In this document: in pieces, positions 3,646-53,872 of the stretch
Position numbering within the stretch: position 1 is the stretch's first letter
Layout: the number at the start of each line of letters is the position of its first letter
Source of the DNA: Candidatus Velesiimonas alkalicola
Lineage (GTDB): Bacteria; Omnitrophota; Gorgyraeia; Velesiimonadales; Velesiimonadaceae
Assembly (NCBI GenBank): GCA_013626165.1
Contig: NDHX01000003.1
Coordinates: 115 to 64,114, forward strand
Length of the DNA stretch: 64,000 nucleotides
Direction: 5' to 3'
Made by a program: the position numbers and the translations under genes
Notes under the pieces: generated by a model
What the model saw: the letters and a program-made list of their open reading frames with translations, nothing else
Databases searched by the model: none
What the model was told of the DNA's origin: nothing

Positions 3646-3681
3646 ATAGCAGTCTAATTTTGCTATAATCTCCGATGTTAA

Positions 3682-3751
3682 ATGACAAATGTCAAAATCC
3701 AAATGTCATTTGAGATTTGTCATTTGTCATTTATTTCCCATTTGTCATTTG
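3682..3751. repeat. Tandem and inverted TGTCATTTG 9-mer repeats (5-6 copies) upstream of tRNA-Val
   Basis: atgacaaatgtcaaaatccaaatgtcatttgagatttgtcatttgtcatttatttcccatttgtcatttg. Confidence 0.6.
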
Positions 3752-19963: not shown

Positions 19964-21118
19964 TTATATTTTTATCCATTTTTTTTCTTTAACAGATTGC
20001 ATTACAGCATCTAACACTTTCTGACATTTAAGCCCATCCTCAAAATTAGGAGAAGGCATCCTGTTATCAGCAATATCATTGAGAAGATCATATATAGTGT
20101 TTATAAATGTATGCTCATAGCCTATTATATGTCCGGGTGGCCAGTAGCCGTCTATATATGGATGAATACCTGGTTCGGTAACAAGTATTGTCCTGAAGCC
20201 CTGTATGTGTGAAGGGTCTTTTCTTGAATAAAATTTAAGTTCATTCATTCTCTCAAACTCAAAAACAAGACTTCCTTCACTTCCATTTATTTCTATTTTT
20301 TCACCATTTTTTCTTCCTGCTGCAAATCTTGTTGCCTCAAAACTTCCCAGTGCTCCATTTTTAAACCTTGCAAGAAAAAGCATCGCATCGTCAACCGTAA
20401 CCTTACCCTTCTTGGGAGAACTTTTGGCAGAAAGTCCTTCCGTTGTTGCAGATAATACAGGTCTTTGTTTTATAAATGTTTCACTGCAACCTACAACCTC
20501 ATCAAAATCTCCTGCAAGAAACCTTGTAAGGTCTATAAGATGAGCATTTAAGTCACCGTGTGAACCTGAACCTGCAACCCTGCTGTCCAACCTCCATACA
20601 AGAGGAAATTCAGGATTTATAATCCAGTCCTGCAAATAAACAGCCCTTATATGGTATATCCTTCCGATTCTTCCCTCATCTATAATTTTTTTTGCAAGAG
20701 AAATGGCAGGAACCCTCCTGTAATTAAAACAAATCATATGTTTTACTCCTGCTTTTTTAACCGCATTAACCATCTTTTTTGCTTCTTCACTATTCATAGC
20801 AAGAGGTTTTTCACAAAGAATATGCTTCCCTGCTTTTGCTGCCTCAATGGCAATCTCACAGTGCGTATCATTGGGGGTTGAAATATCAACCAGATGTATG
20901 TCATCTCTTTTTATAAGTTTTTTCCAATCAGTTTCATATGTTTCCCATCCCCAGTTTTGTTGAACATTTATCACTTCTTTTTCATGCCTTCCGCATATAG
21001 CTCTCATTACCGGTTTAATCTTTGGCTTAAAAAATTTATTTACTTTCAAAAAAGCGTTTGAATGAGCCTTTCCCATAAACTTATAACCTACAAGTCCTAC
21101 ACCAATTGTATCAGCCAT
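19964..21118 (-). CDS. Gfo/Idh/MocA family oxidoreductase
   Basis: 384 aa. N-terminal Rossmann fold IGVGLVGYKFMGKAHSNAF. Confidence 0.7.
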   Translation of the reverse strand: MADTIGVGLVGYKFMGKAHSNAFLKVNKFFKPKIKPVMRAICGRHEKEVINVQQNWGWETYETDWKKLIKRDDIHLVDISTPNDTHCEIAIEAAKAGKHILCEKPLAMNSEEAKKMVNAVKKAGVKHMICFNYRRVPAISLAKKIIDEGRIGRIYHIRAVYLQDWIINPEFPLVWRLDSRVAGSGSHGDLNAHLIDLTRFLAGDFDEVVGCSETFIKQRPVLSATTEGLSAKSSPKKGKVTVDDAMLFLARFKNGALGSFEATRFAAGRKNGEKIEINGSEGSLVFEFERMNELKFYSRKDPSHIQGFRTILVTEPGIHPYIDGYWPPGHIIGYEHTFINTIYDLLNDIADNRMPSPNFEDGLKCQKVLDAVMQSVKEKKWIKI

Positions 21119-21139: not shown

Positions 21140-21265
21140 TTTACCGTTAACTGTTCACCGTATTCCGTTACCCATATTCCATATCCCGTCGCCCGTATTC
21201 CGTATACCGCATTTCATAAAAGATACTTACGATGATATACGAACAAAGGTTTTCCCTGTTATCCA
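21140..21265. repeat. Family B intergenic repeat (MITE-like), copy 1, left end degenerate
   Basis: The core tatcccgtcgcccgtattccgtataccgcatttcataaaagatacttacgatgatatacgaac is shared with 39157-39219. The right terminal aaaggttttccctgttatcc is similar to the copy-2 TIR. Confidence 0.6.
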
Positions 21266-22992: not shown

Positions 22993-23569
22993 ACCCCTCC
23001 TTTGAATGGTGTATTATAAGATTATTTTTGATATTTCTTTATATTTTATGACATTTTCCCATATACTGCATTTATTGCCTTATTTCTTATCCTGCAAGAA
23101 TCGCACTTTCAGCAAGTGCAGATGCAATACTTAAAAATATTATATTTCTGGAAGGAACATATGTCTGCGGGACATTAAGTCTTATATCGGATGTTCTTAC
23201 TCTTAAACCTGAAGATGTATGAGGGCAGACTTCCAAACAGGCAGATCAAGTTTTGCAATATATAAGGGAACTTTTGCTTTTTGGACAATTTTTTTTGCAG
23301 ATTCAATCTCACATTTGTGCCTCTGGTTGCATCCTATAATGCATTGAAAACAAAATAAGGATTGCATTGATTACACAGATTTTTAAATCCGATTACACAG
23401 ATTTCGACAGCAATCTTTATCTGTGTAATCTAAACTAATCTGTGTAATCATACCTTTATTTATTTGACAGAGCACTATAAGCATGGCAAAAGGTAAAAAT
23501 CCTCTGTTTTTTGCAAAAAAAGTGTAACAGATGAATCAAGCCCTCCCGATAAAAGAACCACACACTTTT

Positions 23570-23954: not shown

Positions 23955-24752
23955 CTACAAGGTTATTATTGCTGTTATTTTTTCTCCAAGAATCTTTGTT
24001 CCAATCTTTTCAAAACCTTCAGGGTCATCACTTACATAACATTTAAGGAAACCTTTATTGTTTGGACTTAAAATCTTATTTTTTTCAAGGTAATCTTTGA
24101 CAGAACTTGCACAGACGGAGGCTGAATTTACGATATAAATTTTTTTACCCAGAATCTTACTTATAGTGCTTTCAAGAATTGGATAATGCGTACAACCTAA
24201 AATAAGTGTATCTATGTTTTTATCAATTAAACCCCTTAAATACTCTCTTGCAATATCTTCAACAATCTTTCCTCCTGTTCTTCCTTCTTCAACCAGCGGG
24301 ACAAATAAAGGACAGGCTTTACTAAAAACTTTTAAACCTGAATCTAACTTAATGAGATGCTTTTGATATGACTGGCTCTTAATTGTTGTCTGTGTGCCTA
24401 TGACACCTATTCTTTTATTTCTTGTTTTCTTTGCCGCAATTTTTGCACCCGGTTCAATCACACCCATAATAGGAACAGAAAAGTATTTTTCCAGTGTTGA
24501 AAGTGCCACACTTGAAGAAGTATTGCAGGCAATGATTATTATTTTTACTTTATGTTTTAAAAAAAACAACACATTTTCTATTGAAAAACGAAGTATGGTA
24601 TCATTTGACTTTGTGCCGTAAGGAACCCTTGCCGTATCCCCGAAATATATTATAGACTCACGGGGGAGGATTTTTCTTATCTGCTTAACAACTGTAAGCC
24701 CACCGAGCCCTGAGTCAAAAACGCCTATGGGAAGCCTGCCTGGAGAAACCAT
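23955..24752 (-). CDS. murI: Glutamate racemase
   Basis: 265 aa. VFDSGLGGLTV ... LGCTHYP. Confidence 0.85.
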   Translation of the reverse strand: MVSPGRLPIGVFDSGLGGLTVVKQIRKILPRESIIYFGDTARVPYGTKSNDTILRFSIENVLFFLKHKVKIIIIACNTSSSVALSTLEKYFSVPIMGVIEPGAKIAAKKTRNKRIGVIGTQTTIKSQSYQKHLIKLDSGLKVFSKACPLFVPLVEEGRTGGKIVEDIAREYLRGLIDKNIDTLILGCTHYPILESTISKILGKKIYIVNSASVCASSVKDYLEKNKILSPNNKGFLKCYVSDDPEGFEKIGTKILGEKITAIITL

Positions 24753-25824
24753 CTGTCTTTTCGTATAATTCTTTAAATCTTAAAATGCCATCAGCAATGG
24801 ATTCTGCAACCATTTTTTGATAGTGTGTATTTGTTAATTTGGATGCCTCCCAACGGTTTGAAAGAAAACCGACCTCAACAAGAACAGAAGGTATGTGTGT
24901 CCATTTTAACACATAAAAGCGGGCTGTCTTTGAACCCCTGTTGGGGGTGGCAAGGCTTCTGTCAAGAGAACTGACAATTAACTGTGAGAGTTGTTTTGAT
25001 TCTATCTTGTTTTCATCCTGAATAATATCCCAGAGTAGTGCTCTTATATTAAGTCCAACATTTTCAGAAATTCCCCCCTCATATTTTAAGCGACCACGCT
25101 CTACCGCTTCTTTAAGGCGGGATTCTTCATCCATAGGACCACCAAGTGAAAACACCTCAAAACCTTTTGGCCTTGTTCTTGTTCTTCTCCTTCCCCTGCA
25201 TGCATTACAGTGTATGCTGACAAAAATATCTGCACCAGATGTATTTGCAATTCTTACTCTTTGAGAAAGAGGAACAAAAACATCTGTTTTTCTTGTCATT
25301 ATAACTTCTATACCGTTGGAAAGAAGTTCTTTTTCAAGATGTCTTGCTATTGAAAGATTTATATCATCCTCATGAATACCAAAGTGCACTGCACCCGGGT
25401 CATGTCCGCCATGCCCTGCATCAATAACTATTCTTCTTATCCTGTGAACAGCGGATGGAACAAGAGCAGGAATGAGAAAAACTTGGACAGCATCCTTTGA
25501 TATAAAAAGTGCACCGCTTTTATAGATAAGCGGTAATTTAAGGGTTGTAGGTTGATTATTTATTAAAGCAGTATTTGAATTAATAAAAAATACTGCTTCA
25601 TGCTCAGGACTTCTTATGGTAAATTTCTGTGAAATGACATCCCATTCCCAAATCAAATTATTTCTGTTGCAAAATTCAACTACATTTACATATCTAGAAA
25701 TATCAGGATGTGGCACTCTTCTATATGGGGCGGGAACACAACCGGACATAAATAAAATACACATACAACCAAGCCACAAAGGCGCAAAGAAAAAATTAAA
25801 AATAAACAATTTTATGTTTTTCAT
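24715..25824 (-). CDS. N-acetylmuramoyl-L-alanine amidase (AMIN domain plus amidase_3)
   Basis: 369 aa. IVIDAGHGGHDPGA. Signal/lipoprotein N-terminus. Confidence 0.8.
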   Translation of the reverse strand: MKNIKLFIFNFFFAPLWLGCMCILFMSGCVPAPYRRVPHPDISRYVNVVEFCNRNNLIWEWDVISQKFTIRSPEHEAVFFINSNTALINNQPTTLKLPLIYKSGALFISKDAVQVFLIPALVPSAVHRIRRIVIDAGHGGHDPGAVHFGIHEDDINLSIARHLEKELLSNGIEVIMTRKTDVFVPLSQRVRIANTSGADIFVSIHCNACRGRRRTRTRPKGFEVFSLGGPMDEESRLKEAVERGRLKYEGGISENVGLNIRALLWDIIQDENKIESKQLSQLIVSSLDRSLATPNRGSKTARFYVLKWTHIPSVLVEVGFLSNRWEASKLTNTHYQKMVAESIADGILRFKELYEKTDGFSRQASHRRF

Positions 25825-26066
25825 TTTTTTCTTAAAAAAAATATACCGCTCTGTTAATTCCCATTCCCTTTTATGGCAAGAGTATATTCCGTTGTCTGTT
25901 TATCTTGTACTTCATACAATACTGGGGTGGTAGCGTTTATTTGACCAAATCTGAACTTTTTTGCCTGCGCCTGCCAAAGTCCGAAGGACAACAGAGGGAG
26001 CAAAACTGACGCTCCGCCCCCCAGAGGCCTTTGAATCACTCTACATTCAAAAAATCTCAGTGATTC

Positions 26067-26456
26067 TCATTTCATTAGCCTGCTCACCAGCCAGATAACC
26101 ACCACGAGCACCAGTATCACTAATGCCAGCTTGATGATGCCCGGCCCCACCAGCCTGGCTGCTACCAGAATAAACACCAGCAAGATAACAGGCACGATAA
26201 ACCAGCCCCAGAACCTCCCGGATGGTAATTCCCTCATGGAGGTTACTCCCCCGGAGTGATCATATGCCGCCCTCCTGTCAGAATCGGAGAGCACCTCATA
26301 GGCTTCATTAAGCTGCTTCATCTTCTCGGCCGCATCCGGCGAGGTGCTCACATCGGGATGGTACTTTGCTGCCAGTCGGCGATAGGCGGCGACGACCACC
26401 TCTCTGTCTGCCTCGGGATGGACCTGCAGGGTAGCGTAATAGTCAGGCTTTCCCAT
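26067..26456 (-). CDS. J-domain (DnaJ-like) membrane protein, inside the high-GC island
   Basis: 129 aa. DYYATLQVHPEADREVVVAAYRRLAAKYHPD plus a C-terminal TM helix. GC-rich codon usage. Confidence 0.7.
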   Translation of the reverse strand: MGKPDYYATLQVHPEADREVVVAAYRRLAAKYHPDVSTSPDAAEKMKQLNEAYEVLSDSDRRAAYDHSGGVTSMRELPSGRFWGWFIVPVILLVFILVAARLVGPGIIKLALVILVLVVVIWLVSRLMK

Positions 26457-26472
26457 TGCCTAAGTGCGGTTC

Positions 26473-27339
26473 TCATTCCCTGGGCTGCGGACTCACCAGG
26501 AATCTGAAGAGCTCGGAGTTAGATCCCAACACCAGGGTAGTTTCCCCAACAAGGAATTTCTCGTATGCCTCCAGTGTCCTCAGAAAGGCGTAGAACTCAG
26601 GGGCTTGCCCAAAGGCTTCGGCATAGATGCTGGCGGCCCCAGCTTCTCCCTCTCCCCTGAGGATCAGGGCAGCCCTCTCAGCCTCGGCCAGTAGAACCAC
26701 TACCTCTCTATCTGCGCTGGCCCTGATTTTCATGGCCTCCTGTGCCCCTTCAGCACGAGCCTCCTTGGCCATCCGGTCTCGCTCCGCTCTCATCCGGGCA
26801 AAAACAGCCTCTTCTACCCCTTCAGGGAGGTCGGCCCTTCTCATCCGGACGTCTATTACCTCGATACCAAACTCACGGCGAGCAACCTCATCTACATGTC
26901 GGCCTACGGTCTCCATAATCGGCTTCCTCTCGACGCTAATTATGTCCCAGAGGTTGTGTCGAGCAATCTCCTCCCGTAATCTGGAGATAGCAATGCTATT
27001 TAACCTGAGCCTGGCCCCATGTTCATCTCTTACCGACTCGTAAAATCGGAGCGGAACTACAATCCGCCACCGGCTGTAACTATCCACCAGCAGCCTCTCT
27101 TTGTCCAGGGTAATGAACTCCGTCGCCGGGGCATCAGCAAACAATATCCTTCTTTCCATGCGGGATACTGTTTGAATGAAAGGGACTTTGAAGTTTATCC
27201 CTGGTTCCTTGATCGTCCTTATATATTCCCCAAATTGCAGAATGATCGCCTGCTCAGCCTCGTCTATCGTAAATATGGTCTGACCTAACATGAACATGGC
27301 CGCCACTACGATTATTACGGTTATCATTAATTTTCTCAT
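26473..27339 (-). CDS. hflC: HflC (SPFH/band-7 protease modulator), inside the high-GC island
   Basis: 288 aa SPFH domain. GC-rich. Confidence 0.8.
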   Translation of the reverse strand: MRKLMITVIIVVAAMFMLGQTIFTIDEAEQAIILQFGEYIRTIKEPGINFKVPFIQTVSRMERRILFADAPATEFITLDKERLLVDSYSRWRIVVPLRFYESVRDEHGARLRLNSIAISRLREEIARHNLWDIISVERKPIMETVGRHVDEVARREFGIEVIDVRMRRADLPEGVEEAVFARMRAERDRMAKEARAEGAQEAMKIRASADREVVVLLAEAERAALILRGEGEAGAASIYAEAFGQAPEFYAFLRTLEAYEKFLVGETTLVLGSNSELFRFLVSPQPRE

Positions 27340-28370
27340 TGTTCACCCCCCAGGTCCCTCAGTGGCAGAAACGGCATCAGGTTGCCGCCGACTGCGGGAT
27401 CGATAATGATTTTCTCGGTTCCGGCAAGAACCCGTTCTATCGTCTCCAGGTATAGCCTCTGTCGGGTCACTGCCGGTGCCATCTGGTACTCCGCAAGAAT
27501 TTTGAGAAACCGCGCTGTATCACCCTCAGCCAGCGCTATCCTTTCGTCCCTAAAGGCAGTGGCGGCGTGTGTTTTCGCTGCCGCCTCTCCCCTGGCTCGG
27601 GGAACTATATCCCGGGCGTACCCTTCAGCCTCTCTCTGAAGCCTTTCCCTATCTGCCTTAGCCCGGACCACATCGTAGAAGGCTTCCCTGACTTCTTCTG
27701 GCGGGTCCACTACCTGTAGTTCCACTCTAATTACATGCAGTCCCGTCAGATGAGCATCCAGCAGAGACTGCAGAAACTCCCAGGTTCCTGCTTCTACATC
27801 AGGGCGACCCACGGTCATCGCATGATCAATATCCATGTTCCCGATAACACTGCGCAGGGCGACCTCAGTATTTACGCGCAGAGCCTCCTCGGGACCTTCA
27901 GTCCGGAATAGATAGGTAGGTGCATCCTTCACCTGATAAAGCACCAAAACCTGGACATCAGCGATATTCCTATCCCCGGTGAGCATCAGCGATTCCAATG
28001 GCATTCGCGCGTGTCTCGGCGGTCTCCCCGGCCTCTCTACCGTCCGAAAGCCGATCTCGGCCCTCCTTACCGCAAGCACATTCACCACATTATGGCTCTG
28101 AATTGGCCAGGGCAGGCGATATTTCAACCCGGGGTCAGTTTGGGATACAAATTTCCCGAATTGCCTCACCACCCCCACTTCGGCGGGCCCAACCGTGTAG
28201 ATTCCACTTGCCAGCCAGATTGCCACCACAACCCCTATTACGAGCCATATTATTGGCCCTATCTTCACCGGCTTGCCCTTCTTCTCACCACCCATCCACC
28301 CGACTATCTCCTGCCAGATATCCTCCCATGGCATCTGGCTTCCTGCTCCTCCTCCTAATCCTCCGTTCAC
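27336..28370 (-). CDS. hflK: HflK (SPFH/band-7 protease modulator), inside the high-GC island
   Basis: 344 aa. VGPAEVGVVRQFGKF... Overlaps the hflC start. GC-rich. Confidence 0.8.
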   Translation of the reverse strand: MNGGLGGGAGSQMPWEDIWQEIVGWMGGEKKGKPVKIGPIIWLVIGVVVAIWLASGIYTVGPAEVGVVRQFGKFVSQTDPGLKYRLPWPIQSHNVVNVLAVRRAEIGFRTVERPGRPPRHARMPLESLMLTGDRNIADVQVLVLYQVKDAPTYLFRTEGPEEALRVNTEVALRSVIGNMDIDHAMTVGRPDVEAGTWEFLQSLLDAHLTGLHVIRVELQVVDPPEEVREAFYDVVRAKADRERLQREAEGYARDIVPRARGEAAAKTHAATAFRDERIALAEGDTARFLKILAEYQMAPAVTRQRLYLETIERVLAGTEKIIIDPAVGGNLMPFLPLRDLGGEQ

Positions 28371-28687
28371 TTCTACGCCTCCTTTCTTTTTTCTACTCGT
28401 TTTACTCGTCCGGGTTCCGTTCCCGGAGAGACTTGATTTTACACTTCATATAATACAGTTAATGTGTTTATTTAACCAAACCTAAACCCTTTGCCTGCTC
28501 GCCAAAACCCGAAAAGCAACGAAGGGAACTAAGCCAACCGCTTCTGTTTTGCTCCGGCGGCAACGCTTCCGACATATTTACTCTGTTCTCCACAACGAGA
28601 AAAACATAAACCCTGATTGATTGGGAATTTCCTCTAAATTATTTTCAATTGGTCTTGTTTTTAAGTTAATTTTCCCATACAATTTTA

Positions 28688-29533
28688 TTACTTATACCTT
28701 TGCCATTTTACTTTTGTAGTAGAATTAGAATTTTCAACTTTACTATCAGGTTTTTTTGCTAAAATTAAATATTTAAATCCTCGCAAAAAGAAATTAAATT
28801 TTTGGGCCCGATAATGCCAAATTCTAGTATTTGAGCTTTGATTTTTTCTTGTAACACATATTAAATCTACGGGCTCAAATTTTATATTATCAATTAACAT
28901 TTGATAAATTTTTAATCCAACAGGAGTAAATTTTTTCTTTACCCATTGGTCACCAATAAGCCACCCTATTACCTTACCGGGTTTCAAAATTCTGTAAATC
29001 TCCCCGGCAACCTTTTCTAATTCCTCGAAAAATTTTGGACCCTCGGCAGAAATTTTACCAATATCTGCAAGCTCGTTAGAATAATTAACGTTATCGCCAT
29101 AAGGGGAATCTATAAAAACCATATCTACCGAATTATCTTTAAGTGGAATTTTCCGCGAATCATTTTTTACAACTTTGGGGTGCTGCGGGTTTATATCATA
29201 GCCGATTACTTTTCTTCCTTCCTCCTCACAGACATCAATCGTTGTTCCGCTCCCGCACATTGGATCAACTACCAAATCGTCCGGCCTCGTGTATCTTTGT
29301 AGCATATTCCAAATGATAAAAGCAGGTGTAACGCCCTGAAACTTATTATTGCCTTTTGGTTTTTTGCCGTAGCTTTGCCTTGAAAAATCCCAAAGGGTGG
29401 TCGTCTCAAAAGGTGGTTTTTCTTCTTCTATTTTCTTCTTTTTTATTTCTCTCTCGTTCGAACTTTCATTCAGTTTTTGAGATTTTATCTCACCAATTTT
29501 TGTATTCTGTTTTACGGCTATTGTGTTTTGCAT
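28688..29533 (-). CDS. Small orphan N6-adenine/N4-cytosine methyltransferase (motif I DPMCGSGTT, then motif IV IDSPYG)
   Basis: 281 aa. VTPAFIIWNMLQRYTRPDDLVVDPMCGSGTT resembles the PF01555 AdoMet region. DSPY lies ~55 aa downstream. No adjacent restriction gene. An RNA methyltransferase of the RsmD type is not fully excluded. Confidence 0.6.
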   Translation of the reverse strand: MQNTIAVKQNTKIGEIKSQKLNESSNEREIKKKKIEEEKPPFETTTLWDFSRQSYGKKPKGNNKFQGVTPAFIIWNMLQRYTRPDDLVVDPMCGSGTTIDVCEEEGRKVIGYDINPQHPKVVKNDSRKIPLKDNSVDMVFIDSPYGDNVNYSNELADIGKISAEGPKFFEELEKVAGEIYRILKPGKVIGWLIGDQWVKKKFTPVGLKIYQMLIDNIKFEPVDLICVTRKNQSSNTRIWHYRAQKFNFFLRGFKYLILAKKPDSKVENSNSTTKVKWQRYK

Positions 29534-29827
29534 AAAATTTTTTTAATCAACTTGTCCACCTTAACATCCAACACAGATGCAATTTTTGACAGAGTATCAA
29601 TTGTTGGTGGTGCATATAGAAATCGAACCATGCATCCCCGAACTTCCGCAAACAAAGAGGCTTTGCCCCTCTGGTATCACCCCTTGAATACTGGGGAAGC
29701 CTCTTCCCCAGACCCCTTCTATGACGCGGGTATATTCTATTACCTATTTTCTGCACTTCATTCAATATCTTTTATCTTTTTTCCTACCTCCTACCTACTA
29801 TCTCCTATCTCCTATCTCCTATCTTTT

Positions 29828-30178
29828 TGGTGGAGGTGGCGGGAATCGAACCCGCGTCCTGAAAACCCTGGCCAAGGTATCTACATCCGTGTCTATTCTA
29901 TTGTCTTTCGCAGTACAAAACACCGAACAGCAGGTTTCTTATACCACTATGGCTTATTGTTCTTGTTCACAGGTTCAAGCCCGAAACCTGCGAACCAGCC
30001 TGCAAACCGACATCCTTTCAAATCTTACAGGCAGAGATTTGAAGGATGTGACTGCTTAAGCAGCCAATGCTAAGTGTTCGTTAGCGTTTGTTTTTTGTCA
30101 GGTTTTCAACGAGGCCACCTGACAACCTCGGGATGCAACCTTCACCAGCAATTTTTCAGTCGAGCCCTATTCACCCCC
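29828..30178 (-). ncRNA. ssrA: tmRNA (ssrA), tag peptide ANEHLALAA
   Basis: 5' end GGGGGTGAATAGGGCTCGAC. 3' end GGACGCGGGTTCGATTCCCGCCACCTCCACCA. Internal reading frame GCT AAC GAA CAC TTA GCA TTG GCT GCT TAA. ~351 nt. smpB adjacent. Confidence 0.85.
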
Positions 30179-30294
30179 AATCTTTAAATCTGTATAATTT
30201 TGAACTTAAAAATCCGAATTTTAATTGAATTTTAAAAACATTCAAAATTGGAAATTAAAAACTCATCCCCTACCTACTATCTACTATCTCCTAT

Positions 30295-30834
30295 CTACTG
30301 TCTTTTTGCCTCTCTTGTTTCTCTTTCTATCTGACGTTTTTTAATTTTTTCTCTTTTGTCAAAGATACGTTTTCCCTTGCATAATGCAATCTCAATTTTT
30401 GTAAATCCTTTTTTAAAATACACCTTTAAAGGGACAAGTGTACAACCTTTCTGCGTAAGATATCCGATAATTTTTTTAACCTCGTAATTATGTAAAAGGA
30501 GCCTCCTGGGCCTTTTGGGGTCAATCTTCTCAAGTGCACCAGATGTATAGGGTGCTATATGCATATTAAAAAGCACAATACCTGATGAATCAGCCCTTGC
30601 ATATGCATCGCTTATTTCAACATCACCCTGCCTTATTGATTTTACCTCGCTTCCTTTTAATGATATTCCCGCTTCCCATTTCTGGAGTATCAGATAAGTA
30701 TAATATGCCTTCTTGTTGGTTGCAACTGCTCTTTCTTCCACTTGTGTATAATACCATAAAAAATAATGTTCTACAAGATTCCAGCCTGTCCTTGCTAATC
30801 TGTGGCAAGGCAGGCTCGTAAAACTTGGAAGCAA
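30295..30834 (-). CDS. smpB: SsrA-binding protein SmpB (true start probably downstream of the first ATG)
   Basis: NKKAYYTYLILQKWEAGISLKGSEVKSIRQG... The ORF-track N-terminus looks like an extension. Confidence 0.8.
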   Translation of the reverse strand: MLPSFTSLPCHRLARTGWNLVEHYFLWYYTQVEERAVATNKKAYYTYLILQKWEAGISLKGSEVKSIRQGDVEISDAYARADSSGIVLFNMHIAPYTSGALEKIDPKRPRRLLLHNYEVKKIIGYLTQKGCTLVPLKVYFKKGFTKIEIALCKGKRIFDKREKIKKRQIERETREAKRQ

Positions 30835-32248: not shown

Positions 32249-32440
32249 AGTATCTATTATAAATACTTTCTAATATTAAAACAATAAAAAATTTATTTTT
32301 ACATGGAGAAACGGGAAGGAACACATCCCTGCCCCGATCCCTGTTTGCACAAGGGCAAGTTTATCGAGGAAGAAGAAAAATGGAGAAAAATGGGGTCAAC
32401 TCTATTTTTCTTTAACAATTTGTGCTATGATAAACCAACT

Positions 32441-33139
32441 ATGCCAAGATCCTTACGAATTACTCTTCCAAATCTGCCTTTCCATGTCCTTGACCGGGGG
32501 AACAATCGTCAAGTAGTTTTCCGAGACGAGCAAAATTTTATTTATTTCCTTAAATTATTGAAAAGATATAAAAAGGAGTTGAAATTCAAGCTCTACCACT
32601 TTTGCCTGATGCCAAACCATATCCATTTAGTGATTGAGCCGACAATTGATGGCAGCCTACCTAAGATTATGATGAGACTTACCCTGGCTTACTCTTCGTA
32701 TTTCAATAAAAAGTATGGTGGAGTAGGTCATGTCTGGCAGGGGAGATATAAAAGTTCTTTAATAGATAGAGAAGAATATTTTATCTGGTGTGGATTATAT
32801 GTAGAGTTAAATCCAGTAAGAGCAGGACTGGTAGTTCGGTCAGAAGATTGGCGATGGTCAAGTTATAATTTCTATGCCTTTGGGCCAGGCGATCCCTTAA
32901 TAGAAGGATTAATTGATGTCGATTCTTATTATTTAAAATTAGGAGAGACTTCAGAAGAACGTCAAAAAAGATACCGCCAGAACGTAGAGGAAGTAATAAA
33001 AGAAAAATTTTTGCAAGATATTCGAAAGAAATTAGATGAAGGAGTTTTTGGAAGTTTAGAATTTATTAAAGCAATGAAAGAGAAATTTAAAATTAAATCG
33101 TTAATGGGTAGAGGAAGACCAAGGAGGGAGGAAAAATAG
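32441..33139 (+). mobile_element. REP-associated tyrosine transposase (RAYT; IS200/IS605 Y1 HUH transposase family), single copy, plus strand
   Basis: MPRSLRITLPNLPFHVLDRGNNRQVVF...LYHFCLMPNHIHLVIEP (HuH)...GHVWQGRYKS (catalytic Y). The ORF track starts at 32303, but the internal ATG at 32441 matches the family N-terminus. Confidence 0.75.
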
Positions 33140-35423: not shown

Positions 35424-35524
35424 CATTCCCCTTTGAGTAAAGGGGTGTCCCGACTTTGTCGGGACAGGGTATTTCCCTTTTGTAGGGTTGTGTCTTGTGA
35501 ATACCCCGTCAGGCTTCGCTCGCC
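35424..35524. repeat. Intergenic cluster of family A REP-like elements (between the TPR gene and ilvE)
   Basis: cattcccctttgagtaaaggggtgtcccgactttgtcgggacagggta ... ataccccgtcaggcttcgctcgcc. The ORF-track 69-aa ORF 35423..35632 is just its translation. Confidence 0.7.
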
Positions 35525-36531: not shown

Positions 36532-36651
36532 GTCTCCTCCTAAAAACATAGTATATAGGAATTGGTAGGTAGGAGATAGGGGAAAATATAATCCACCCAA
36601 CCCTCCTTTATAAAAGGAGGGTTATTTTTCCTACCTACTACCTACTATCTA

Positions 36652-37845
36652 CTATCTACTATCTACTGCCTCCTGTTTTTTAAATACCTGTTCAACATCT
36701 TTATCTCCTCTGCCTGACAGGCAGATAATAATTATTTTATCTTTCAAGGCTCTGGCATTTTTTCTAACATATGCAACAGCATGTGCAGGTTCAAGGGCAG
36801 GTATGATGCCCTCTACTTCTGAAAGGAAATGGAATCCGCTGAGTGCTTCTGCATCTGTGATTGTAAAATATTTTGCTCTTCCCGTTTGTTTTAGATATGA
36901 ATGTTCAGGACCAACACCGGGATAATCAAGCCCGGCAGATATTGAATGTGCAATGCTTATCTGACCATTTTTATCCTGTAGAATATAACTCTTGCTACCG
37001 TGGAGTATTCCTATTTTTCCATAACAAAGTGTTGCAGCATGCCTGCCTGTTTTTATGCCAAAACCTGCTGCTTCAACACCTATAAGTTTAACATTTTTAT
37101 CTTTTATAAACGGATAAAAGAGCCCCATTGAATTTGAACCGCCGCCAACACAGGCAATCAAACAATCAGGAAGTTTTCCTTCACATTTTAATATCTGTTT
37201 TTTTGCCTCTTTTCCAATAACAGATTGAAAATCTCTTACCATCATTGGAAAAGGATGTGGACCTGCAACAGAACCTATCACATAATGTGTGTTTCTTACA
37301 TTGGTTACCCAATCCCTCATAGCCTCGTTCATTGCATCTTTTAGTGTCTTTGAACCCATATATACGGGATTTACCTTTGCACCAAGAAGCTGCATCCTGA
37401 ACACATTCAACCTCTGTCTTTCAATGTCCTCTTCCCCCATATATATCTCACACTTAAGACCAAATAAAGAAGAGGCTGTGGCAGTTGCAACTCCATGCTG
37501 GCCGGCGCCGGTTTCTGCAATGATCCTTTGCTTTCCTATTTTTTTTGCAAGTAAAATTTGACCCAGAGTATTATTTATCTTATGAGCACCCATATGGCAC
37601 AAATCTTCTCTTTTAAGATATATCTTTGGCCCTCTTAAAACATGAGAAAGATGTTTTGCATAATAAAGCGGTGTGGGTCTTCCGGCATAATTTTCCAGAT
37701 ACCACTTCAGTTCTTTCTGAAATTCAGTGTCTTTCTTTGCCTTTGTGTATGCTGTTTCAAGTTCATCAAGAGCAAACATCAATGTCTCAGGAACAAACCT
37801 GCCGCCGAACTGACCAAAATGTCCTTTTTTATCCGGTAATTTCAT
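36652..37845 (-). CDS. trpB: Tryptophan synthase beta chain
   Basis: 397 aa. [33 protein letters not shown]. Confidence 0.85.
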
Positions 37846-39125: not shown

Positions 39126-39245
39126 GTTACAGGTAACAGGGAAAAGCCGTACTCTGTATCCCGTCGCCCGTATTCCGTATACCGCATTCCATAAAAGATA
39201 CTTACGACGATACACGAACGACGGCTTTTCCCCGTTACCTCGTCA
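39126..39245. repeat. Family B intergenic repeat (MITE-like), copy 2, with ~19-bp terminal inverted repeats
   Basis: TIRs ggtaacagggaaaagccgt ... acggcttttccccgttacc flank the same ~63-bp core. Lies between yceD and rpmF. Confidence 0.6.
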
Positions 39246-44768: not shown

Positions 44769-44810
44769 AATTCCCCTCTTATAAGGGGGTGTCCTAAAAG
44801 GGACGGGGTG
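44769..44810. repeat. Intergenic family A REP-like element (between korD and the NTase-fold gene)
   Basis: aattcccctcttataagggggtgtcctaaaagggacggggtg. Confidence 0.7.
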
Positions 44811-44811
44811 T

Positions 44812-45396
44812 TTAAGAGTGTTGCAGCATTTTTAATTTTCTAAACCGTTTATCTTTATGCACAATTTTTGAAAGATTTAATGCCTTCTCCTTTTCCTTTT
44901 GCCCCATCACTGAAAGTAAATTCAAGATATCGTATTCATCTTTTAAGCCCCCGGCTTGAAGCTTCATTGCCACAAGATATGGCTTTGAAAAACAAGGAAA
45001 AGCAAGCCCTAAATCCTCTGCATTTTCAAGAGCTTCTATTTCCCATCCATAATGTGCAAATAAAATATCTATTGTCGGACACTCGCCCTCAATATGAGCA
45101 ATCCGTATAAGTGAATGTTTAAGGGGGTCTGAAATATTTGTAAAAGGTTTGTATTCAACATTAAAATCTAAAAGTTTTTGCTTCAAAAAAATAAAAAGGT
45201 TTTCAGGGTCAATCTCTTTCTGATTCTTATCAGTTATAACTACACATAAATCAACATCCATTGTTGTTCTCGGCACACCCTGCGAAATGATCGCCTGCCC
45301 ACCGATTAAAGCAGCCTTAATGTTGCAATTTTTTAATCTGCTAAACTTCTCTAAATTTTTTTTGACCAATCTTAAGGTACTCTTGATAGACTTCAT
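44812..45396 (-). CDS. Nucleotidyltransferase-fold protein (minimal NTase motif GGQAIISQGVPRTTMDVDL); start uncertain
   Basis: 194 aa. Overlaps the upstream small ORF by 56 nt. Confidence 0.45.
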   Translation of the reverse strand: MKSIKSTLRLVKKNLEKFSRLKNCNIKAALIGGQAIISQGVPRTTMDVDLCVVITDKNQKEIDPENLFIFLKQKLLDFNVEYKPFTNISDPLKHSLIRIAHIEGECPTIDILFAHYGWEIEALENAEDLGLAFPCFSKPYLVAMKLQAGGLKDEYDILNLLSVMGQKEKEKALNLSKIVHKDKRFRKLKMLQHS

Positions 45397-53675: not shown

Positions 53676-53872
53676 ATCTGCTTTCTTCTTCGCGCAGGCG
53701 AGCCTATCTGCTGAAAGGCTTAAAGGGTTATTGGCAAAATGAATTGAGCGGTCTAATTTTGCTATAATCCCCGATGTTAAATGATAAATGTCAAAGAGAA
53801 AACCAGGTGCTCATTTTCATCTTGCATATAGTCCTTCCCCTGCTCTTTTTTGGAAAGGCAGGGTTCATTCCC

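Follow-up and report, generated by a model that had tools for sequence, protein, structure and literature searches.

How does an operon of foreign composition come to lie between the transfer-messenger RNA (tmRNA) gene and an amidase gene of an Omnitrophota bacterium, framed by two similar sequences in direct orientation? We address this question in a 64,000-nucleotide (nt) stretch of Candidatus Velesiimonas alkalicola (GenBank assembly GCA_013626165.1, contig NDHX01000003.1, positions 115 to 64,114 of the forward strand; hereafter the window). Here, a preliminary description had picked out a GC-rich block with a DnaJ-domain gene, hflC, and hflK, bounded by imperfect direct repeats (R-left and R-right below), and had proposed site-specific or duplicative integration of acquired DNA or, alternatively, a chimeric assembly join. 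Composition, codon use, donor-type loci, and ancestral gene order strongly support its suggestion of horizontal acquisition, namely, the transfer of an intact hflK-hflC-J-domain operon into an Omnitrophota-related chromosome. Our analysis also brings in what that description had overlooked: a ~4-kb variable zone, the remnant of a restriction-modification (R-M) module, a donor-type locus in a sister metagenome, and polymorphism of the island interior.

Origin, limits, and polymorphism of the operon

In 1-kb bins across the window, the GC content is 0.32 to 0.42 everywhere but at 26001-28000, where it rises to 0.52 to 0.56. The block itself (26063-28428) has 54.5% GC, compared to a mean of 37.2% (standard deviation, 1.4%; maximum, 40.2%; z = 12.1) for 283 other windows of the same size, and its tetranucleotide distance to the remaining window is 0.055, about three times the background of 0.017 ± 0.003 for same-size windows. 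Codon usage deviates as well, with a GC content at third codon positions (GC3) of 0.58 to 0.68 in the block genes, compared to 0.26 to 0.34 in six host genes and 0.55 to 0.68 in the donor-like loci introduced below. The GC-rich block is thus present as described, and its three genes had been called correctly, as judged by NCBIfam and Pfam models (Table 1), but the figures attached to them were too extreme: the 58 to 60% GC given for the genes is reached only by local 300-nt peaks, the genes themselves having 52.5 to 55.9%, and the neighbors, put at ~33%, measure 34.5% (methyltransferase) and 37.5% (amidase).

A search with HflK, which the preliminary description had proposed as a route to the donor lineage, returned Dehalococcoidia (78%), Atribacteraceae (80%), and NPL-UPA2 (70%) as best named homologues. 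At the DNA level, three loci that are GC-rich throughout resemble the island: L004, an NCBI “Dehalococcoidia bacterium” (54.5% GC; 79% identity over 2.3 kb); L005, “Atribacteraceae” (52% GC; 76% identity), which keeps the order hflK-hflC-J-domain gene; and L033 (BBPD01000472.1; 50% GC), a contig from a sister metagenome that is syntenic with L004 and 85% identical to the island over 1.9 kb, with 100-nt bins at 94 to 96% and, at the 3′ end of dnaJ, 97% over 63 nt. In L005, hflC is followed by the J-domain gene; L004 and L033 have this gene in the same place, uncalled or beneath a gap. Homology to these loci begins at ~28431, at the outer end of a conserved leader (60 nt, with GGAGG), and ends at 26063, 4 nt beyond the last stop codon. 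The leader thus moved together with the operon and marks the 5′ limit of donor homology. At the other end, the 47-nt trailer is without homology to L033 or L004, where a tRNA-Ile comes after the dnaJ-like stop, and may derive from a donor 3′ untranslated region. This tRNA-Ile(GAT) lies 10 to ~60 nt after the operon in L033 (8314-8387) and L004; in L004 (12180-12260, 12563-13504), it is followed by a phage-type tyrosine integrase gene, so that this donor-type copy sits beside an integration hot spot. Carriage by a phage is unsupported, given that no HflK relative was found in the viral contig collection. Taken together, sequence comparison strongly supports a GC-rich lineage of the Dehalococcoidia type as donor.

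The ancestral order of the host locus can be read from three Omnitrophota contigs (L030, L031, and L032), distant relatives whose amidases are 39 to 40% identical to that of the window and in which smpB is followed by the tmRNA gene, 138 to 200 nt of spacer, and the amidase gene, murI, and queD. In the window, the tmRNA gene ends at 29828 and the amidase gene starts at 25824; compared to the short spacer of the relatives, ~4 kb have therefore been inserted 3′ of the tmRNA gene, and everything between the two genes is insertion. The amidase belongs to the native backbone; it is 100% identical to a protein named “bacterium Unc6” by NCBI, and its remaining homologues, at ≤43%, are from Candidatus Omnitrophota. 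Within 25825-29827, the open reading frames (ORFs) comprise the methyltransferase gene, hflK, hflC, and the J-domain gene only, with no integrase and no excisionase, in agreement with the preliminary description, which had seen no integrase inside the block. The inserted zone consists of two compositional modules, the GC-rich operon and the low-GC methyltransferase gene. For the latter, the contigs L016 (1137-1838, 2106-2369) and L003 (1-683) provide context: upstream, they carry an RE_BsaWI gene that overlaps the methyltransferase start, plus a second methyltransferase fragment. The homology of the window to both contigs stops at 29473, and the N terminus of its methyltransferase differs (277 compared to 281 amino acids [aa]). 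The window methyltransferase is thus an orphan, as had been said, but no mere neighbor of the insertion: it belongs to the inserted zone and is what remains of a BsaWI-type R-M module that other strains carry in complete form.

Both junctions between host and foreign DNA recur in several independent assemblies. The left junction—amidase gene, R-left, and dnaJ 3′ end—is identical in L001 (BBPE01006013.1), L002 (a Logan contig of DRR093101), and L003 (BBPG01001715.1), and the right junction—methyltransferase gene, R-right, and hflK 5′ end—is identical in L003, L016 (BBPF01001770.1), L036 (BBPE01007758.1), and L037 (a Logan contig of DRR093102). If reads of a GC-rich organism had been spliced into an AT-rich contig, a source would be at hand, as a GC-rich relative with 85 to 97% identical hflKC (L033) occurs in the sister metagenome; moreover, the 5′ end of L001 turns L033-like, with the first 333 nt of hflK 96.4% identical, and local chimerism within hflK is possible in such assemblies. 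Against an artefact of this kind, the host/island junctions are the same across assemblers and samples (BBPE, BBPF, BBPG, Logan DRR093101, and Logan DRR093102), and the island ends are 100% identical across strains although the interiors differ. In addition, the trailer, R-left, and R-right are absent from L033, and hence there is no shared repeat to mislead an assembler. Chimeric assembly, the alternative raised in the preliminary description, is therefore effectively refuted, and we give it a negligible probability. For the curation of metagenome-assembled genomes, this means that such a compositional outlier should not be discarded as contamination.

The island interior exists in two haplotypes. 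Between the window and L003, the backbone, both repeats, and the island ends (28575-28180 and 26290-25935) are essentially identical, whereas the interior (28170-26300) is 4 to 8% different. The number of synonymous substitutions per synonymous site (dS) between the interior haplotypes is 0.145 to 0.19, and the ratio of the nonsynonymous rate to it (dN/dS) is ~0.2, which shows that the operon genes are under purifying selection. When changes were polarized with L004 and L005, the allele of L003 and L001 had 76 derived changes (49 GC>AT compared to 19 AT>GC) and the window allele 31, without bias. At sites that differ between the alleles, L033 agrees with the window at 74, with L003 at 25, and with neither at 14. 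Because the flanks are identical, one of the alleles must have come in by homologous recombination, later than the insertion itself. The L033-like 5′ switch in L001 would reflect either another recombination event or chimeric assembly at this spot.

Table 1. Features of the inserted zone and of the genes that border it (window coordinates)
Feature	Position	Strand	Remarks
N-acetylmuramoyl-L-alanine amidase	24715..25824	-	Pfam Amidase_3; native backbone gene
R-left	25900..26015		Aligned to R-right; stops 76 nt before amidase ATG
47-nt trailer	26016..26062	-	Between donor-homology end and R-left; inverted repeat AATCACT...AGTGATT
J-domain protein, 129 aa	26067..26456	-	Pfam DnaJ residues 5-66, E = 2.6e-21; HPD motif
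hflC, 288 aa	26473..27339	-	TIGR01932 239.7 bits vs cut-off 134.4; Pfam Band_7; GC3 0.59
hflK, 344 aa	27336..28370	-	TIGR01933 258.8 bits vs cut-off 159.4; GTG start; GC3 0.58
Leader and Shine-Dalgarno sequence	28371..28431	-	GGGAACGGAACCCGGACGAG...GGAGG; aligns upstream of hflK starts in L004, L005, and L001
R-right	28434..28551		Aligned to R-left; 0-5 nt from donor leader
Orphan N6/N4 DNA methyltransferase	28688..29533	-	Pfam N6_N4_Mtase; PADLOC MTase_II; low GC
tmRNA (ssrA)	29828..30178	-	Rfam RF00023 189 bits; ARAGORN

The flanking repeats and the mode of insertion

The direct repeats at the two ends of the block are genuine, and the strings quoted in the preliminary description start exactly at 25935 and 28466; their extent, given there as ~85 to 100 bp, is actually longer (Table 1), with 92 to 116 nt depending on the alignment. 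R-left and R-right are ~76% identical with few indels, 1- and 3-nt ones among them, and a strict local core (25909-25999 and 28443-28527) scores 51, compared to 18.5 ± 2.3 and a maximum of 28 in 500 shuffles. A third copy is found neither in the window nor in L004, L005, and L033, and when the metagenome and genome collections were scanned for the exact core, only this locus and chance hits came up. R-left starts 47 nt past the end of donor homology, and R-right lies 0 to 5 nt before the donor leader. Since the two copies bracket the foreign DNA almost exactly, they appear to be tied to the insertion event.

Read on the minus strand, each copy consists of a GC-rich block (0.55 and 0.64 GC) and then an AT-rich block (0.27 and 0.35 GC). 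The GC-rich blocks of both copies hold a GGAGC...G(C/T)TCC hairpin, and the AT-rich blocks of both read TTTGGTYAAATAAAC...GTATTRTATGAAGT, with a −10-like TATTRT motif. In R-left, the GC-rich hairpin spans ~25965-26030 (64% GC), with a terminator-like hairpin GGAGCGTCAGTTTTGCTCC at 26015-25997 in a terminator scan, and the AT-rich block (25900-25964) contains GTATTGTATGAAGT; the AT-rich block of R-right contains GTATTATATGAAGT. The R-left sequence is the same in the window, L001, and L003, and differs in L002 by a single 1-nt deletion. R-right was found in L003, L016, L036, and L037, and neither its AT-rich half nor the leader varies among strains. Its distal half is more variable: of the 11 differences that separate the window from L016 over 1,109 nt, 10 fall in this half and the 40 nt upstream (28489-28615), compared to a single one in the 846-nt methyltransferase gene. 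Seven of the eight substitutions are GC>AT transitions, and the cluster points to either local hypermutation or a recombination patch. Gene conversion between the repeat copies was considered and rejected, as the variants that match R-left are evenly divided between L016 and the window (4 and 4).

Several other identities for the repeat were tried and set aside. As a structured RNA, it has no Rfam match, and its folds have z scores between −0.7 and +1.0. MAFFT had set R-left opposite the tRNA-Ile of L004, but as a decayed tRNA it fails, since local alignment to both donor tRNAs scores at or below the shuffle mean. As a small ORF, it would encode peptides of 35 and 61 aa, in a frame broken by a 1-nt strain indel in R-right and by the 1- and 3-nt indels between the copies. 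The R-left hairpin (25990-26016) matches L033 (737-764) at 24 of 27 nt in the coding region of nadE, ~5 kb upstream of hflK; over all comparisons, such a match is near the chance level and probably arose by chance. A donor nadE fragment was rejected as the source, given that the match is not found in L004 and that blastx (E ~0.1) places the two copies on opposite strands.

We consider it somewhat probable that the foreign operon was inserted with a long target duplication of a ~115-nt recipient spacer between the tmRNA and amidase genes. Donor DNA (26063-28431 plus the 47-nt trailer) would have entered between these genes with neither an integrase nor a tmRNA attachment (att) site being used, and ~115 nt of recipient sequence would have been duplicated at insertion to give R-left and R-right. 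The duplication would have left a terminator/promoter-type spacer in front of the foreign operon as well as of the amidase gene that it displaced. A promoter role is favored by six coding-strand matches to GTATTRTATGAAGT, with 1.5 expected, and by the lack of strain variation in the AT-rich half and the leader. The R-M module would have come in later, at a point between the distal repeat and the tmRNA gene, and part of it would have been deleted in the window strain; the island interior, too, would later have been swapped for a different allele by homologous recombination. Duplicative integration, one of the modes named in the preliminary description, thus fits the geometry best, although no collection yielded the empty site that would prove it.

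Several observations weigh against this account. First, the identity of the repeats is ~76%, below the ~93 to 99% of published long target duplications. This could reflect age, as the per-copy divergence (~0.12 to 0.15) and the derived branch leading to the L003-type allele are of similar magnitude. Second, a σ70 consensus scan called no promoter in either copy, the nearest −35-like hexamer differs in spacing by 3 nt between the copies, and the repeats fold on both strands no better than shuffles (z, −0.7 to +1.0). Third, the GC content of the distal halves (0.55 and 0.64) is unusually high for intergenic DNA of the host, so that these halves, too, may be foreign. Fourth, the closest donor-like locus, L033, is 85% identical overall, and no exact donor was found. 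Finally, no insert-free close relative turned up in the genome contigs, the metagenome contigs, or the protein collection: a scan of the genome contigs with the amidase protein found no empty site, a search for amidase homologues yielded none with an identity between 43% and 98%, and look-ups with rmuC and the methyltransferase returned short contigs of the same population only. Distant Omnitrophota thus lack the insert, but no close relative with a single repeat copy was found.

Site-specific integration, the other mode that had been suggested, is not supported: there is no integrase, and there is no att repeat derived from a tmRNA or tRNA gene. The last 70 nt of the tmRNA gene, aligned to 25701-29827, score 18 (shuffle mean, 19) and reveal no att repeat, and the repeats align to the donor tRNA-Ile no better than shuffles do; nor are the repeats identical cores. 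A tmRNA att site model built on the T-arm/CCA-like string GCATGGTTCGATTTCTATATGCACCACCA (29596-29640, minus strand, ~200 nt after the tmRNA gene) was rejected, as this string aligns to the tmRNA 3′ end at the shuffle level. As a T-arm with CCA end it was likewise dismissed: 29540-29800 alone has no Rfam match, and a subthreshold “tmRNA_permuted” match depended on the presence of the genuine tmRNA gene.

A Campbell-type integration, in which a circle with the operon and one R-like sequence recombined with a related resident copy so that the two were never identical, predicts the observed geometry of repeat, cargo, and repeat, and makes the 24% divergence of the copies simpler to understand, as they would have differed initially. 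The crossover could have been made by homologous recombination or by a recombinase acting in trans or since lost. The tmRNA-adjacent region is a hot spot for integrative elements, the tmRNA-proximal zone varies between strains here, and the tyrosine integrase of L004 adjoins the operon and the tRNA-Ile. However, the 4-kb zone contains neither an integrase nor an excisionase, the repeat is absent from the donor-like L004, L005, and L033, and it bears no relation to the tmRNA or tRNA-Ile sequences commonly exploited by elements of this kind. An earlier linkage of donor DNA with recipient-like sequence would also have to be postulated, with nothing to explain it. We therefore regard a Campbell-type event as unlikely.

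The repeats need not have been made by insertion at all. They could belong to a dispersed or regulatory family, represent the ends of a Y1/HUH transposase element, or both have been brought along with the donor DNA. The two copies are similarly spaced from a gene start (64 and 76 nt upstream), GTATTRTATGAAGT is overrepresented on the coding strand (6 matches compared to 1.5 expected), the distal halves are as GC-rich as the island, the window harbors other repeat families and a Y1_Tnp gene, and R-left has its 24/27-nt match to nadE in L033. On the other hand, only two copies exist in 64 kb, and pattern scans of the collections matched this locus alone. Their inner edges meet the ends of donor homology, a coincidence not expected of repeats placed at random; none of the three donor-like loci has the repeat; there is no significant fold and no Rfam match; and the nadE match is lacking in L004 and near the chance level. 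Repeats of such independent origin seem to us rather less likely again than a Campbell-type event.

More speculatively, the repeats and their cargo could constitute an integrase-free mobile cassette, with the ~115-nt hairpin-plus-promoter ends serving as recombination or mobilization sites acted on in trans and the resident copy serving as a landing pad for repeated interphylum gene conversion from coresident Dehalococcoidia-type donors. The trans-acting factor may be the Y1/HUH transposase at 32303-33139, for example, or host recombination. Such a cassette would explain the diverged haplotypes (dS, ~0.15 to 0.19) and the patches of 94 to 97% identity within clonal backbones. We judge it improbable, and retain long target duplication as the preferred explanation.

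Other repeats and strain differences in the window

Beyond the island, the window bears traces of other mobile elements. On its minority strand, between rmuC and purA, a gene at 32303-33139 (+) encodes a 278-aa protein with an IS200-like Y1_Tnp domain, which could be a repetitive extragenic palindrome (REP)-associated tyrosine transposase (RAYT) or the TnpA of an IS200/IS605 element; the gene is also found in the backbone of L036. A GC-rich palindromic family (ACTACCCCGTCAGGCTTCGCCTGCCACCCCTTC..GAAGGGG) that resembles REPs or miniature inverted-repeat transposable elements (MITEs) occurs at 1-60, 1588-1700, 2047-2095, 2666-2773, 35498-35524, and 44769-44814, partly in tandem or inverted pairs, and also in the pair 1348-1450 and 1933-2035. 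These repeats may be the REPs of the Y1 transposase. An 85-nt repeat with internal inverted arms and 87% identity (21172-21256 and 39147-39231; hairpin, 39131-39240) is suggestive of a small, strain-polymorphic mobile element: positions 7301-7390 of L001 match 39147-39237, and L001 has an indel of ~106 nt relative to the window near 21000-21100. A 49-nt repeat with TTGCTATAAT (3648-3696 and 53747-53795; 94% identity), one copy of which adjoins a tRNA-Val gene, may be a shared promoter.

Differences between strains extend to the host genes around the insertion. The N-terminal region of the L003 amidase (4469) is shorter by 72 codons in frame, or 216 nt (window 25473-25688), and the protein measures 295 aa compared to 369 aa. 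The fhs-queD intergenic patch at 23236-23440 is strongly diverged or rearranged relative to L001, with identical genes on either side. Heptad-like repeats of GATAGGAGATAGTAGGTAGG (minus strand) lie on either side of the tmRNA gene (29776-29841 and 30269-30320) and again 6 kb off (36630-36695, with an inverted copy at 36548-36591); short-read contigs end at these repeats.

Gene products and known systems

The foreign hflK and hflC genes are adjacent, in this order, and overlap by 4 nt. In the 129-aa J-domain protein, the C-terminal half is hydrophobic and the NCBIfam DnaJ models match the J domain only; judged by its sequence, it is probably a membrane-anchored cochaperone of DnaK. The trio has no PADLOC match, MTase_II having been assigned to the adjoining methyltransferase only, and neither an ftsH gene nor a DnaK partner was seen among the window ORFs examined. 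In E. coli, the membrane protease FtsH is modulated by an SPFH cage of HflK and HflC. By analogy, the HflK/HflC pair encoded here would form an FtsH-modulating cage, to which the J-domain protein, with its C-terminal anchor, would add by bringing DnaK to the membrane. The “Unc” names are those of metagenome-assembled genomes from The Cedars, a site of serpentinizing springs from which Unc6 and the BBPD-BBPG assemblies may also come; whether the operon confers a selective benefit under hyperalkaline stress is a matter of speculation.

Compared to its E. coli counterpart, the operon shares the adjacent and overlapping K-C genes, each product with an N-terminal hydrophobic segment and an SPFH domain, but adds a third, cotranscribed gene for a small J-domain protein, as in the Atribacteraceae- and Dehalococcoidia-type loci. 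The J-domain protein resembles DjlA in having a J domain with HPD motif that is predicted to be tethered to the membrane; in contrast to DjlA, the J domain is N terminal and the transmembrane segments C terminal, and the DjlA model scores 22.6 bits (cut-off, 162). As in the islands that tyrosine integrases place at tRNA and tmRNA genes, foreign DNA lies directly 3′ of ssrA, in a strain-variable zone and with direct repeats, yet there is no integrase here, and neither repeat reproduces the 3′ end of the tmRNA gene. The imperfect direct copies with a hairpin each, and a Y1_Tnp gene ~4 kb off, recall the ends of IS200/IS605 elements or of the REP/RAYT system, from which the locus differs in that no transposase lies inside, the hairpins are weak, there is a single R-flanked unit, and the repeat is unlike the REP-like family of the window. 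Unlike an integron cassette, the cargo comprises three genes in an operon that has a leader of its own; by inspection, neither repeat contains attC cores (RYYYAAC...GTTRRRY), and their folds are no better than those of shuffles.

The locus is thus a horizontally acquired genomic islet, the product of fairly ordinary horizontal gene transfer and no new class of system. Its value lies in being a well-bounded, recent interphylum transfer of a membrane-protein quality-control operon from a Chloroflexota-type donor to an Omnitrophota-related recipient, with base-resolved breakpoints, a candidate donor lineage in a sister metagenome, and later allelic replacement. Among known processes, it can be compared with insertion with long target duplication (Nobusato/Kobayashi; Furuta et al. 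2010), for which repeat identities of 44/46, 417/423, and 384/412 are on record (PMC2853133). As in those cases, a foreign segment of a few kilobases and deviant GC content, with no mobility gene and with an adjoining R-M module, is flanked by direct repeats of more than 30 bp, far above transposon target duplications, that are unique in 64 kb and in the related contigs. The differences are that the cargo is hflKC-dnaJ instead of R-M genes, that the repeats are ~76% identical compared to ~93 to 99%, and that no single-copy empty site was found. If long target duplication is indeed what happened here, this integrase-free and poorly understood mode of insertion would extend to cargo other than R-M genes and to a phylum without an earlier description of it, and it would show how a GC-rich foreign operon can gain host expression signals while the downstream gene is left undisrupted.

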